Below, in pieces: positions 24,044 to 27,732 of a stretch of 27,732 bases of DNA. Within the stretch, counting starts at the first letter, position 1, and every line of letters starts with the position of its first letter. Under the pieces are notes generated by a model, which was given only the letters and a program-made list of their open reading frames with translations, was not told the DNA's origin and did not search any database. The position numbers and the translations under genes were made by a program. Origin of the DNA: a virus (Duplodnaviria > Heunggongvirae > Uroviricota > Caudoviricetes). The stretch is taken from IMG/VR virus record IMGVR_UViG_2778261570_000016. The stretch is one strand, 5' to 3'.

Positions 24044-24653
24044 GAAAATTCTCCCTGCTTATCCATTTGTGCAGTACAGAGATGATCCGAATGTTGTTGC
24101 GTTCTTTGATGCATACAATGAAATTGCTCAGGAATACCTCGATTCACTCAACAATCTGGCATTACCATGCTGGACATCGGAATCAATAACCGGGCAATTG
24201 CTGGACTGGATTGCACTCGGGATTTATGGCGTTGAAAGGCCTTTACTACAGGTTTCCGAGGAGGCTATTGCACGCGGCGCATACGATACCATTGAATACA
24301 ATACGATCCCGTATGCAGCAATGCGGAATTATGTTCCGGGGCAGGCATCGTATGTACCTGATGATTATTTCAAACGAATATTAACGTGGAATTTTTATAA
24401 GGCTGACGGTTCGCATTTCTGCATTGACTGGTTAAAGCGCCGTGTGGCGCGGTTCATTCATGGAAAAAACGGAATAGACCCGCCATTGCAGCACACTTTT
24501 GATGTGAGCGTGACTGTATCGGACAGCGTTTTTTCTGTTCAGATACCAGAATATGGTGATGGTATAGGCTATTTTCTGAAAGATGCCATTGACCAGAAAT
24601 ATGTAAAACTCCCTTTTATTTATTCCTATGTAACAACGGTGATTCAAAAATGA
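24027..24653 (+). CDS. Tail/baseplate protein (P2 gpI / Mu gp48-like)
   Basis: About 208 aa between the gpJ-like and tail fibre genes; ATG at 24027 chosen over the longer frame start at 23919. Confidence 0.5.
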   Translation: MQYLTEKILPAYPFVQYRDDPNVVAFFDAYNEIAQEYLDSLNNLALPCWTSESITGQLLDWIALGIYGVERPLLQVSEEAIARGAYDTIEYNTIPYAAMRNYVPGQASYVPDDYFKRILTWNFYKADGSHFCIDWLKRRVARFIHGKNGIDPPLQHTFDVSVTVSDSVFSVQIPEYGDGIGYFLKDAIDQKYVKLPFIYSYVTTVIQK

Positions 24654-26158
24654 TTCTTGGATTCGGCAATAACGTTGTTTCAGCACTGGCTGGTGATATT
24701 ACGACGATTCAGACTGATATTCCGGTGATGCCTGGTACGGGGGCTAAATTTGCAAAATTGCTTTCTGCCGATTTTGAAAATAAATCAAACGGGCAACGCA
24801 TCTATGCAAAAATTACGCTTACCGATAATAAAGAGTCAGCGTTTGAGATTTGTCACCTGGTATCGGTAAGCGGTGATGTGCTGAAAGTCATTCGTGGGCA
24901 GGAAGGAACAACCGCGAAAGGTTGGTCCCTTAATGACGTTGTGGCTAACTTTGCCACGCGTGGTTCGGAAAACCATTTCGTACAGATAGCGCAGCTTCAG
25001 AGTGGTCATTATATTGCGGGAGTTGCTGGCGGCACTGCAAACGCGCTGACTCTGGAGCTTCCCGCGACGTTTTTTGTTAATGGAGGTACAGACTGGACGC
25101 TACGAACCCCGATTATCGTTTTCCCCGTTCAGAACAATACCAATGCCGCGACACTTCAATTAACACTGGGCGGAAAGGTTCTTGGTACGTTCCCGCTTTA
25201 TAAGGGGAACAAGTCCGAGCTGGTAGCGAACGATATCATTAAAGGCATTCCCTTAATTTGTCTTCTTGATAGCGAGAAAAGCTATTTCAGCGTGATAAAC
25301 CCTGGCAATATCTATTCAGATTTTGATCTGCGATATGTAAAAAAATCTGGTGATTTGATGACCGGGGAACTGAAAATCCGTGGTGTTAATGCGCTGAGGA
25401 TTTTCAACGAAGCCTTTGGTCTGATTTTTCGTCGTTCGGAAGAGTGCCTGCACCTTATACCAACACAGGAAAACCAGGGTGAAAATGGCGATATTGGCCC
25501 CCTGCGTCCGTTCACCATAAATCTGCGGACGGGTGAGATAACCATGTCCAAAGTGTCTGTTGGTGGTGATTCACAGGTACGTGGTGCGCTGGGTATCGGT
25601 GTTCAGAACGCGCTGGGTGGAAACTCAATTGCTTTCGGGGATAACGATACAGGTATAAAACAAAACGGCGACGGCATTCTGGATGTTTATGCGAATGGAC
25701 AGCATGTATTTCGTTTCCAGAATGGTGTGGCGATAGCGTTAAAAAATATTCAGGCCGGAAATGCTAAAAAATTCACGTTATCCAGCGTCAACAACTCCAC
25801 GAAAAACGCAACGTTTAATTTATGGGGTAATTCATCCCGACCTGTAGTTGTAGAGCTTGGTGATGATTCCGGCTGGCATTTTTACAGCCAGAGAAATACG
25901 GATAACAGCATAACGTTCGCTGTAAACGGGCAGATGGTTCCATCAAACTACGGAAACTTTGATGCCCGCTATCAGACCAAAACAGGCGGTGTACAGGATG
26001 TGCGTCTGGGCGGTGCCATTGGTATTGGGCGTGGCGGGAATGCACCATCAGGTCACCTTATCAGCGGTCTTGATGGTGGTGAAAGTATGGACTGGGCCAA
26101 TGCCCGCCCGGTGCAGGTTCTGATTAATGGCGTCTGGCGGAATGTAGCGAGTTTGTAA
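24650..26158 (+). CDS. Tail fibre protein (P2 gpH-like C-terminal receptor-binding region)
   Basis: C-terminal block GDNDTGIKQNGDGILDVYANGQHVFRFQNGVAIALKNIQAG...FNLWG...GWHFYSQRNTDNS...FAVNGQM closely matches my recollection of the P2 gpH family; followed by a Tfa gene. Confidence 0.8.
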   Translation: MILGFGNNVVSALAGDITTIQTDIPVMPGTGAKFAKLLSADFENKSNGQRIYAKITLTDNKESAFEICHLVSVSGDVLKVIRGQEGTTAKGWSLNDVVANFATRGSENHFVQIAQLQSGHYIAGVAGGTANALTLELPATFFVNGGTDWTLRTPIIVFPVQNNTNAATLQLTLGGKVLGTFPLYKGNKSELVANDIIKGIPLICLLDSEKSYFSVINPGNIYSDFDLRYVKKSGDLMTGELKIRGVNALRIFNEAFGLIFRRSEECLHLIPTQENQGENGDIGPLRPFTINLRTGEITMSKVSVGGDSQVRGALGIGVQNALGGNSIAFGDNDTGIKQNGDGILDVYANGQHVFRFQNGVAIALKNIQAGNAKKFTLSSVNNSTKNATFNLWGNSSRPVVVELGDDSGWHFYSQRNTDNSITFAVNGQMVPSNYGNFDARYQTKTGGVQDVRLGGAIGIGRGGNAPSGHLISGLDGGESMDWANARPVQVLINGVWRNVASL

Positions 26159-26160
26159 TT

Positions 26161-26709
26161 ATGATGCACTTAAAATATATTACGGCACAAAATCCCAAAA
26201 CAATTGAGCAATACCAGCTGGCGCGACAGCATAAATTTTTATTGTGGCTGTTCTCCGATGATGGCCAGGAATGGCACGAAGCCCAGGAAAAATTTCAGCC
26301 AGACACTCTGAAAGTTATTTATGTCGAAACTGGCGAAGTGGTCTGGGTCGGAAAAGACATCACCTCAATCTGCCCGGAAAATAAAAGTGTGATTGAGTTG
26401 CCGGATATTACCGCTAATCGTCGCATTGAGGCGTCGGGATACTGGTTCTATCGCAATGATGAATTTGTTTTTGACTACAAACTTAAAGCGGAAGATGAGC
26501 GTGATGCCCTGTTAAAACAGGTCAGCATCATGACCAGCGAATGGGAAAAAGACCTGCTGCTGGGATTAATCAGTGACGAAGACAGGGAGAAGCTGAAAGC
26601 GTACCGCATTTACGCGAAATCGCTGCAGGCGCTGGATTTCAGCACCATCGCTGATAAAACCTCATATAACGCCATTGAATGGCCCGTCTCTCCGGAAGCC
26701 TCTTCCTGA
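26161..26709 (+). CDS. Tail fibre assembly protein (P2 gpG / Tfa-like chaperone)
   Basis: N-terminus MMHLKYITAQNPKTIEQYQL...ELPDITANRR matches the conserved start of P2 G-type tail fibre assembly proteins; directly downstream of the fibre gene. Confidence 0.8.
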   Translation: MMHLKYITAQNPKTIEQYQLARQHKFLLWLFSDDGQEWHEAQEKFQPDTLKVIYVETGEVVWVGKDITSICPENKSVIELPDITANRRIEASGYWFYRNDEFVFDYKLKAEDERDALLKQVSIMTSEWEKDLLLGLISDEDREKLKAYRIYAKSLQALDFSTIADKTSYNAIEWPVSPEASS

Positions 26710-26732
26710 TTTAATTTATCGCGAGAAAAACT

Positions 26733-27732
26733 ATGTCTGTAGTGATATCAGGTGCGCTGATAGATGGCGCAGGCATTCCCATGTCCGGATGCCACATAAT
26801 TCTGAAATCCCGGGTAAACACCTCAGAGGTGGTGATGCGCACAGTTGCCGACGTGGTGACAGGAAACTGTGGCGAGTACTGTTTTAAGGCGCAGACCGGA
26901 AAATATTGCGTATATCTGAAACAGGACTGGCGCGACGAGTACTGTGTTGGCGACATTGCTGTATACGACGACTCCAGGCCCGGCACGCTGAACGACTTTC
27001 TGACTGCCCTTGATGAAGGCGACCTCAAACCCGACGTGGTGAAACGTTTTGAGGAACTGATGGCGCAGGCGCGGCAGAGCGCGGAAGCGGCAGCGGAAAG
27101 CGAACGACAGGCCGGGCAACATGTCGCTGATGCGCAACAAATCAAGAGCGACTGCGAGACGCTGGCGGATAACGTACAGCAGAATGCAGAAGCCGTTGCC
27201 GAAGATAAAAAGCACGTGGAACAAATTGTGTCTTCGGTTTCACTGGATGCAGATCGTGCAGAACAGGCAGCAAAAAACGCGGAGTTGCACGAGTCCGGTG
27301 CACTGACAGCGCTGGAAGAAGCGAAGGAAATTGCAAAAACACCAGGACCCACCGGCCCTCAGGGCGAGCAAGGGCCACGGGGTGAACAGGGTCCTAAAGG
27401 CGATACCGGCCCTCAGGGCGAGCAAGGGCCACGGGGTGAACCTGGTCCTAAGGGCGATACCGGCCCTCAGGGCGAGCAAGGGCCACGGGGTGAACAGGGT
27501 CCTAAAGGTGATACCGGCCCTCAGGGCGAGCAAGGGCCACAGGGGGAGCCAGGCAAAGATGCCGATCTCAAAGGGATAAAAGCCACCACTCCAATGGGCA
27601 CTGATTTCAACGATGTTGGTATGGGGACATATGCCTATCCATTATTAGGACAGGAAAACAGTAACGCCGCCGCAGTAAGTAATCACCCCATTCCCGGTTC
27701 AACAGGTAACACAGCCTGGGGGATTGTGTGGG
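26733..27732 (+). CDS. Second tail fibre (side tail fibre N-terminal domain family, StfR-like) with collagen-like repeats; 3' partial
   Basis: My own translation from the ATG at 26733 is open to the window end (absent from the ORF track because there is no stop). N-terminus [27 protein letters not shown]...[14 protein letters not shown] matches the conserved prophage side-tail-fibre N-terminal domain, followed by a coiled coil and G-X-Y repeats. Confidence 0.75.
27351..27560 (+). repeat. Tandem 54-nt repeat (about 3.8 copies) encoding collagen-like triplets [18 protein letters not shown]
   Basis: Direct repeats of ACCGGCCCTCAGGGCGAGCAAGGGCCACGGGGTGAACAGGGTCCTAAAGGCGAT with a few substitutions, in frame within the fibre gene. 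Confidence 0.8.

Follow-up and report, generated by a model that had tools for sequence, protein, structure and literature searches.

The window, the whole stretch of DNA analysed here, is 27,732 nucleotides long and is the complete contig NLMT01000067.1 (27,732 bp) of draft assembly GCA_002228995.1. It derives from a temperate E. coli phage or prophage of the Rac-SA53/vB_Apl-pPE4 type, and its contractile tail is indicated by a sheath protein (phrog_205, E = 2.1e-53), a baseplate hub and a J-like protein. The genes described below close its late operon on the right-hand side, where the last baseplate genes are followed by a tail-fibre gene (fibre 1), the gene for its Tfa chaperone and a second fibre gene (fibre 2; outlined in table 1). 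The window ends where the contig ends, which is not a biological boundary.

Table 1. Features of the baseplate-fibre region, with positions in the window.
Feature	Position	Strand	Basis
Baseplate J/gp47-like wedge protein, 408 aa	22817..24043	+	PF04865 (E 1.4e-07), phrog_6
208-aa protein at the P2 gpI position, presumed fibre-1-holding wedge protein	24027..24653	+	phrog_8212, full length
Fibre 1 N-terminal part (aa 1-235), adaptor specific to its own baseplate type	24650..25354	+	phrog_25419
Fibre 1 distal part (aa 236-502), mosaic shaft and tip depending on Tfa	25355..26158	+	Mu S and T4 gp34 matches
Tfa (Caudo_TAP) chaperone for fibre 1, 182 aa	26161..26709	+	PF02413 (E 2.7e-22), phrog_136 (E 5.8e-54)
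Spacer between Tfa and fibre 2, 23 nt	26710..26732	.	read from sequence
Fibre 2 PfN/Stf-type 'collar' anchor domain (aa 1-134)	26733..27134	+	PF08400 (E 1.7e-60)
Fibre 2 Ala/Gln/Glu-rich coiled-coil stalk (~aa 95-202)	27015..27338	+	aligns with XM1 gp40 coiled coil
Fibre 2 Gly-X-Y stretch, 24 triplets (aa 205-276)	27345..27560	+	PF01391 (E 1e-15)
Fibre 2 distal domain, first ~57-59 residues, cut by contig end	27561..27732	+	

Architecture of the two fibre genes

Fibre 1 (ORF 24650-26158, 502 aa) matches tail-fibre PHROGs and falls into two parts of different affinity. The best PHROG for the N-terminal 235 residues is of unknown function, and this part is common only to Rac-SA53 and the pPE4-type phages, in Rac-SA53 at the DNA level. 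Among the tblastn matches listed (40 of 849 records), only vB_Apl-pPE4 and, weakly, Burkholderia phage JC1 align with residues 1-235; none of the P2-type records listed does. The distal part matches Mu fibre S (5yvq, E = 4.5e-11), resembles T4 gp34/gp37, shares 44% identity with the P2-type fibre of P2_AC1 (E = 2e-48) and is 72% identical to phiP27 L54. The label 'P2 gpH-like' given to fibre 1 in the first-pass annotation therefore stands for the C-terminal half, a homologue of the distal parts of P2-type H, Mu S and T-even gp37, but not for the baseplate-attachment part, residues 1-235, which has no P2 H counterpart among the matches listed. The 208-aa protein encoded just upstream has no match in Pfam or the PDB; in related loci its gene co-occurs with the J-like gene and the fibre 1 N-terminal type, and gene position suggests that it is presumably the wedge protein that holds fibre 1. 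In TUM1881, the sole complete genome with an identical fibre 1, the J-like baseplate gene is annotated likewise by RefSeq.

The Tfa gene begins 3 nt past the fibre 1 stop. Its product belongs to the Caudo_TAP family (lambda Tfa, P2 G, Mu U), scoring 79.8 bits against PF02413 (gathering score 22.1), and is 98% identical to phiP27 L55. As first described, this chaperoned fibre is followed on the same strand by a second fibre gene of another lineage, whose ATG at 26733 lies 23 nt past the Tfa stop. A terminator-like stem, weak at 5 pairs with a 3-nt loop, reaches as far as the Tfa stop codon, and the T-rich tail behind it enters the spacer. A promoter of its own for fibre 2 was considered and rejected, as a promoter-like site is absent in or near the 23-nt gap; transcription of both fibre genes together with those of the baseplate is probable.

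The fibre 2 frame is open up to the end of the window. Its N-terminus aligns with the phage_tail_N (PfN) profile PF08400 from end to end (residues 1-134 on profile positions 1-134; 203 bits, cut-off 26.6) and with the N-domain of lambda Stf (9e7m, E = 1e-17), and residues 1-107 are identical to those of phiP27 L56. Residues 1-183, N-domain and coil together, give a moderate match to the collar spike gp40 of the Vibrio myovirus XM1 (7kjk, E = 3.8e-7). The stalk is a predicted coiled coil, the counterpart of the 'PCoil' of the EPcl proteins, the collagen-like tail-fibre proteins of E. coli prophages (Ghosh et al. 2012, PMC3368898). The 24 Gly-X-Y triplets that follow are uninterrupted.

Gene order, mosaicism and selection

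The layout with two fibre genes is not unusual: it is common and already annotated in related phages. The order fibre, Tfa, PF08400 fibre, DUF4376 protein is annotated at the right end of the genome in the Stx2e phage phiP27 (L54-L57, NC_003356), in Rac-SA53 (tail1-tail4) and in vB_Apl-pPE4 (gp67-gp70), and the layout has matches in 229 of 5,426 complete E. coli genomes. The literature searched held nothing specific on the fibres of phiP27 or Rac-SA53. The second fibres of phiP27, Rac-SA53 and pPE4 (490, 1061 and 667 aa) lack collagen and end in a distal domain that differs from that of the window.

The breakpoints of similarity to these three phages make modular fibre swapping, proposed in the first-pass annotation, clear. 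Rac-SA53 and pPE4 share ~96% DNA identity with the window over 81% of its first 24 kb, whereas similarity to phiP27 is confined to 25358-27223; the head, neck, sheath and baseplate of phiP27 have no similarity to the window detectable by tblastn, and the remaining virion proteins of the window find no match in phiP27. Similarity to Rac-SA53 is interrupted at 25725-26557. For all three phages it ends just ahead of the collagen stretch, and the mosaic junctions of fibre 2 with its relatives all lie inside the coiled-coil stalk (~27223-27268). Three levels of fibre mosaicism can be told apart: the N-terminus of fibre 1, specific to the baseplate, is never exchanged between tail types, the distal half of fibre 1 and Tfa are, and the PF08400-anchored fibre 2 crosses still more widely. 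Tip switching by an invertible segment, of the Mu G, P1 C or e14 kind, was rejected: there are no suitable inverted repeats in 22000-27732 and no invertase in the flanks of the relatives.

Conservation was surveyed in 80 viral contigs that carry a close PF08400 domain. The type of fibre 1 N-terminus agrees with the baseplate type in all 57 loci scorable for both. A Tfa homologue lies upstream of the PF08400 gene in 60 loci, and in ~55 an ORF of Tfa size (~180 aa) ends 23-24 nt before it. The fibre 2 ORF is complete in 63 loci (147 to 1047 aa, mostly 422-1047 aa), and a DUF4376 ORF is found downstream in 48, that is, wherever the sequence extends that far. The domain occurs on three unrelated contractile tail types, with 40 loci having the tail context of the window, 17 that of phiP27 and 17 a P2-like gpD. 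None of the 80 contigs holds a collagen-bearing variant of fibre 2, so the collagen form is a minority. All three genes are under purifying selection, with omega values of 0.08-0.26 for fibre 1, 0.09-0.22 for Tfa and 0.10-0.19 for the anchor and coil of fibre 2.

Collagen repeats and the distal domain

The collagen stretch is encoded by a repeat array at 27351-27545 with a period of 54 nt, 3.6 copies and 94% matches (Tandem Repeats Finder). It had been read as four near-identical and perfect repeats. Near-identical holds for units 1-3, which agree at 50-53 of 54 bases, but unit 4 agrees at only 41-43, and no exact repeat is longer than 50 nt. The expected variation in fibre length is borne out, as the stretch ranges from 40 to 124 triplets among relatives; complete genomes have 113-124, against 24 in the window. 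Five of seven sister contigs break off inside the array. Given these breaks and the difference in triplet number, the copy number in the window is unreliable: the apparent truncation of fibre 2, and its count of only about four repeats, arise because this contig was assembled from short reads and runs out in repeated sequence. Short-read assembly of E. coli genomes systematically breaks or collapses fibre genes with collagen repeats, and neither repeat counts nor 'truncated' fibre genes at contig ends should therefore be taken for biology. This caution is the main practical value of the comparison.

Fibre 2 does continue beyond the window, as had been anticipated. In relatives the gene runs 93 codons further and ends in a 150-aa domain with a predicted receptor-binding-protein fold. 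A structural model of this domain from an alignment of 12 near-identical E. coli fragments was unusable (pLDDT 35) and became usable only when diverged relatives from an exhaustive HMMER search were added; a word-indexed homologue search with the ~57-59 residues present in the window returned two fragments only. A second Tfa had been expected next, but where relatives carry the distal domain type of the window the downstream gene encodes a DUF4376 protein and not a Caudo_TAP protein. A DUF4376 gene directly follows fibre 2 in TUM1881, phiP27, Rac-SA53 and pPE4. DUF4376 proteins are experimentally identified fibre chaperones (PMC7289586, PMC10579305), exemplified by gp27 of Alteromonas phage V22.

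The architecture of fibre 2 is that of the EPcl proteins, which have a PfN domain (PF08400), a coiled coil (Ala/Ser-rich in EPcl), Gly-X-Y repeats of variable length and a small C-terminal globular domain. For EPclA, a trimeric state and a genuine collagen helix have been demonstrated (PMC3368898). In fibre 2 a collagen domain (PF01391) likewise follows PfN and the coil, the latter recognized by its alignment with XM1 gp40. Neither the window protein nor the full-length C-terminus of its relatives has a hit to PfC (PF06820); membership of EPclA or EPclB was rejected on this C-terminal domain. Those two classes occur in lambdoid long-tailed and short-tailed Stx prophages, whereas fibre 2 belongs to a contractile-tail phage. 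By its domain composition, fibre 2 fits the published EPcl family, and in particular the rarer EPclC* and EPclD classes with other C-termini.

Arrangement of the fibres in the virion

Taken as a whole, the locus is best explained as two complete modules of fibre plus chaperone, a baseplate fibre (fibre 1) and an auxiliary fibre (fibre 2), and we regard this reading as likely. In the first module, the N-terminal 235 residues would fit the wedge proteins of the same phage, and the distal half, a mosaic of Mu S, P2 H and T4 gp37 type, would be folded by Tfa. The second module would be an auxiliary fibre of the lambda side-tail-fibre/EPcl family: a trimer held on a tail ring by its PF08400 collar domain and continuing as a trimeric coiled coil, then as a collagen triple helix whose length varies greatly, up to a small distal domain of ~150 aa that may bind the cell surface. 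The DUF4376 chaperone encoded just past the window would fold this tip. Both fibres are probably built into the virion; a dual-fibre particle is made likely by intact genes conserved in many loci, purifying selection and the fact that each fibre has a chaperone of its own. Fibre 2, being long and flexible, might make the first, reversible contact, after which fibre 1 would trigger the baseplate.

Two systems with a known attachment site bear on where fibre 2 may dock. Lambda Stf has a homologous N-terminal collar domain and, like fibre 2, is an auxiliary fibre whose gene comes last in the tail operon. Stf accelerates adsorption, and twelve copies of its residues 1-94 make up a collar where gpV meets gpM (PMC12617516). 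The systems differ beyond the anchor: in lambda Stf this is followed by Phage_fiber_2 repeats and by a gp37-like distal part that Tfa folds, whereas fibre 2 has a collagen stalk and an unrelated tip, its protein in the window has no hit to Phage_fiber_2 (PF03406), and the chaperone in its relatives is of the DUF4376 type rather than a downstream Caudo_TAP protein. Lambda is also a siphovirus with an exposed tube, while the tube of the window phage lies under a sheath. We infer that the collar domain would sit on an exposed ring, because the sheath covers the tube. In XM1, gp40 trimers are attached to the neck, bound to gp4 and gp5 (PMC10457771), and form a second receptor-binding set beside the baseplate spikes of a contractile-tail phage. 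Like fibre 2, gp40 has an Ig-like N-domain followed by an alignable trimeric coiled coil of ~100 residues, but it ends in a beta-helix tailspike instead of collagen and a small tip, and its N-domain scores 19 bits against PF08400, under the 26.6 threshold. The occurrence of the anchor domain on three unrelated contractile tails suggests that fibre 2 is an auxiliary plug-in fibre, and by analogy with XM1 the neck is the likeliest candidate for its docking site. The 314-aa, 208-aa, J-like, 151-aa and sheath proteins have no relevant PDB sequence match to an XM1-like tail or neck, so the idea of neck docking is without support from the partner side. The proteins searched include two encoded just upstream of the sheath gene. 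The sheath is encoded at 14008-15345 and the tube at 15357-15800, and candidate neck and terminator proteins at 12200-12640, 12622-13077 and 13064-14008.

A broader proposal, in which PF08400 is a universal plug-in anchor on sipho-, podo- and at least three unrelated myovirus tails, gripping a structurally conserved ring that on contractile tails lies at the neck, is put forward only tentatively, jointly with the reading of fibre 2 as a collagen whisker. The cassette would then comprise the anchor, the coil, an exchangeable stalk and tip, and its own chaperone. If this is true, collagen whiskers near the head would be a second, independently evolving host-recognition device of temperate E. coli myoviruses, their reach tuned by expansion of the 54-nt repeat from 24 to more than 120 triplets; an anchor independent of tail type would be convenient for equipping temperate phages or tailocins with an additional, engineered receptor-binding fibre.

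Fibre 2 could instead sit at the baseplate end, on a baseplate ring or on fibre 1 itself, in a branched fibre set. The ~95% block shared with phiP27, whose tail is otherwise unrelated, comprises exactly the fibre 1 distal half, Tfa and the PF08400 domain, and these travel together, with the 23-24 nt junction kept in most of the loci surveyed. In 12 of the 17 P2-like loci, however, the PF08400 fibre comes directly after gpD, and the 6 kb upstream hold neither a Tfa gene nor a distal part of the fibre 1 type, so co-inheritance with fibre 1 is not obligatory. PF08400-type domains are known to bind rings, formed by proteins of the tube, adaptor or neck, and not fibres (the N-domains of phi24B gp61, for example, bind an adaptor ring), and the sole solved myovirus case, XM1, sits on the neck (PMC10457771). 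Attachment at the baseplate end is unlikely.

Less probable still, and in our view improbable, is that fibre 1 alone is used and the fibre 2 gene is merely carried along, silent or in decay, as a stock of fibre modules on which recombination can draw. The mosaic junctions inside the gene and its slippage-prone 54-nt repeats would suit such a role, and the gene is broken in several relatives: in TUM1881 it is spread across three reading frames and labelled a pseudogene, and the P2-like copies in TUM9812 (an IS66 insertion and frame breaks) and E9 are disrupted. Frame breaks in long repeat arrays, here in two assemblies of one project, may nevertheless be sequencing errors. The omega values of the anchor and coil are as low as those of fibre 1 and Tfa, and the complete ORFs and the dedicated chaperone gene of the related loci also argue for the two-module reading. 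An origin of the fibre 2 gene from an older prophage remnant beside the integration site, such as Rac stfR, is highly improbable: the TUM1881 element does lie at the Rac locus, adjoining uspF, ompN and nifJ, and K-12 Rac reportedly has stfR with the same N-domain (mentioned also in PMC3368898), but the remnant reading was rejected from att and integrase positions in three phage records, as in phiP27, integrated at another site, the genes come in the same order and attR follows directly, pPE4 has its integrase directly downstream and Rac-SA53 has attB after tail4, and the conserved spacing between Tfa and the PF08400 gene likewise speaks against it.

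Fibre genes of a contractile-tailed prophage

The window carries a late operon with terminase, portal and head genes, a tail sheath (phrog_205, E 2.1e-53), a tape-measure-like protein with an SLT domain, a baseplate hub and a J-like protein, while a 208-aa protein occupies the gpI position; its source is a temperate phage with a contractile tail. Escherichia phage Rac-SA53 and the 'Actinobacillus' phage vB_Apl-pPE4 (pPE4) are ~96% identical to it across 81% of its first 24 kb, and the fibre region is 99.3% identical to that of a prophage of E. coli TUM1881, which lies at the Rac locus (uspF, ompN, nifJ). 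The recorded host of pPE4 (PP818812.1) is Actinobacillus pleuropneumoniae, an attribution that looks doubtful given such identity to an E. coli prophage.

The coordinates and gene calls of the first-pass annotation hold for the fibre region, where ORFs and PHROG and Pfam matches delimit a fibre gene (fibre 1), its Tfa chaperone and, after a gap of 23 nt, the ATG of a second fibre gene (fibre 2). Residues 1-254 of fibre 1 match phrog_25419, a family of unknown function. Fibre 2 has four parts: a PF08400 'prophage tail fibre N-terminal' domain (aa 1-134, E 1.7e-60), an Ala/Gln/Glu-rich stretch, 24 Gly-X-Y collagen triplets without interruption (PF01391, E 1e-15) and the start of a further domain, of which 57 residues are present. 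This collagen form corresponds to the E. coli prophage collagen-like (EPcl) proteins, with their layout of PfN, PCoil, Col and a C-terminal domain (Ghosh et al. 2012; PMC3368898); for EPclA, a trimer with a collagen helix has been demonstrated (PMC3368898). Because PfC is absent over the window protein, fibre 2 is placed with the rarer EPclC*/D forms.

Fibre genes and other features of the window
Feature	Position	Strand	Description
Fibre 1	24650-26158	+	502 aa; tail-fibre PHROGs over aa 226-502
Tfa chaperone	26161-26709	+	182 aa; Caudo_TAP/Tfa, PF02413, E 2.7e-22
Fibre 2	26733 (ATG) to last window base	+	Frame open throughout
Collagen repeat array	27351-27545		Period 54, 3.6 copies, matches 94% (Tandem Repeats Finder)
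Tandem repeats	4211-4284		36-nt and 12-nt (AAAACTGCGCAA-like), in 5' part of small terminase gene (4073-5164)
Repeats in head gene	9396-9556		42-nt and 12-nt, within 440-aa gene 8697-10019; annotated 'TolA protein' in relatives
Tape-measure-sized gene	16478-18451		657 aa, the only one of this size; lytic transglycosylase (SLT) domain aa ~474-606
Opposite-strand gene pair	21740-22795	-	162-aa AntA/AntB antirepressor; 182-aa protein with N-terminal signal-like sequence (MKFNSLGILISSLLFSGVSHA...)

Distribution and mosaic structure

The two-fibre layout is ordinary and already annotated. The same gene order, annotated as fibres plus chaperone, occurs in the Stx2e phage phiP27 (L54-L57), Rac-SA53 (tail1-tail4) and pPE4 (gp67-gp70), and 229 complete E. 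coli genomes, out of 5,426, match the region. In a set of 80 viral contigs carrying a close PF08400 domain, a Tfa homologue lies upstream in 60, a Tfa-sized ORF ends 23-24 nt upstream of the PF08400 gene in about 55, and DUF4376 lies downstream in 48; P2-like gpD is found in the upstream flank of 17, ten of which have a gpD-sized ORF ending 25 nt upstream. Complete fibre-2 ORFs in this set span 147-1047 aa (mostly 422-1047 aa). In the P2-like prophages of E. coli E423, TUM9812, VTB97432v and E9, located near tRNA-Ser/hyaA or ompW/yciE, the same PF08400-collagen fibre and DUF4376, sometimes with DUF1353, come right after the P2-like tail genes U, X and D; P2-like phages therefore carry the extra fibre module too.

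DNA similarity to phiP27 is confined to 25358-25725 and 25940-27223; that to Rac-SA53 runs up to 25725 and again over 26557-27268, and that to pPE4 up to 26005 and again over 26104-27268. All three end in the coiled coil of fibre 2, just 5' of the collagen, and tblastn detected none of the other virion proteins of the window in phiP27. Wherever both could be scored among the 80 loci, baseplate type and fibre 1 N-terminal type agree (57 of 57), and the distal half of fibre 1, the Tfa gene and the PF08400 domain are found across different baseplate types. Both the junctions and these crossings support the modular fibre swapping proposed at first. The same data mark the fibre 1 N-terminus as the baseplate adaptor and show a fibre 2 anchor that is independent of any single baseplate.

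The collagen array and the end of the contig

The repeats had been described as four and perfect, which overstates them: units 1-3 have 50-53 of 54 bases in common, unit 4 only 41-43, and no exact repeat is longer than 50 nt. By exact-protein match, the window is the complete draft contig NLMT01000067.1 (27,732 bp) of assembly GCA_002228995.1. Identical fibre 1 genes lie on seven draft contigs, five of which end in the collagen array; one extends into the distal domain and has 43 triplets, against 24 here. Complete genomes with the same fibre-2 allele include two P2-like prophages whose intact proteins, of 693 and 726 aa, contain 113 and 124 triplets; TUM1881 has 30+21+69 over three frames, annotated as a pseudogene. 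Database proteins with the distal domain are nearly all 'partial' fragments from contig ends. Because the window is a draft contig, its sisters break in the array and complete genomes have longer arrays, the apparent truncation of fibre 2 is an assembly effect and the repeat copy number is not to be trusted.

In the intact relative from VTB97432v, 93 more residues follow '...GIVW' before the stop, which a DUF4376 gene overlaps; a DUF4376 protein also follows the second fibre in TUM1881, phiP27, Rac-SA53 and pPE4. Experiments on the Alteromonas phages V22 and A5 have identified DUF4376 proteins as fibre chaperones (PMC7289586, PMC10579305). Since the relatives' gene continues, with this chaperone gene behind it, the gene does not stop short of a receptor-binding end, the outcome named beforehand as contrary to a second fibre.

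The right end of the window lies within the fibre distal domain, for which a second copy of that sequence in the same genome is a possible reason. The long arrays of TUM1881 (L001, 12346-13450) and TUM9812 (L006, 4246-5307), two complete genomes from the same project, each shift frame twice, and that of TUM1881 contains a copy of a 15-residue linker followed by further collagen; the cause is either genuine rearrangement or decay, or sequencing error where long reads cross repeats.

Docking and function of fibre 2

The first-pass interpretation holds in part: fibre swapping stands and a dual-fibre virion is likely. The four repeats and the open end, its most eye-catching features, result from short-read assembly. 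Three relatives of the PF08400 domain have been solved. In lambda Stf, whose N-domain it matches (E 1e-17), residues 1-94 build a collar of 12 copies at the gpV/gpM junction that carries four trimeric fibres (PMC12617516); in podovirus phi24B gp61, the N-domains bind the adaptor ring. Residues 1-183 also match gp40 of the Vibrio myovirus XM1 (E 3.8e-7), whose N-domain falls below the PF08400 threshold. This protein has an Ig-like N-domain and a coiled coil, and six of its trimers are attached to the connector and tail terminator at the neck (PMC10457771). Since the tube is hidden on a sheathed tail, fibre 2 would sit on the neck or another exposed ring. Docking on the baseplate or on fibre 1 is a live rival to this position; the candidate partner proteins searched gave no XM1 matches.

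The intergenic gap and its surroundings lack a promoter-like site, and the one terminator-like stem there, a weak one, lies at the stop codon of Tfa. Inverted repeats suited to an invertible segment are absent from 22000-27732. We infer that the fibre genes are co-transcribed. Although several individual copies are disrupted, low dN/dS (0.10-0.19 for fibre 2 anchor and coil, 0.09-0.22 for Tfa, 0.08-0.26 for fibre 1) and a complete ORF with a dedicated chaperone at most related loci argue against fibre 2 being a decaying remnant.

Elsewhere in the window, the repeats in the small terminase gene may mark a site used in packaging or regulation. The opposite-strand pair lies within the baseplate module, between a 115-aa protein and the J-like gene, in a slot whose content differs from one near-identical prophage to another (in L013 and L014 it holds a 189-aa AntA and, on the plus strand, a 248-aa gene instead) and which looks like a moron insertion site.
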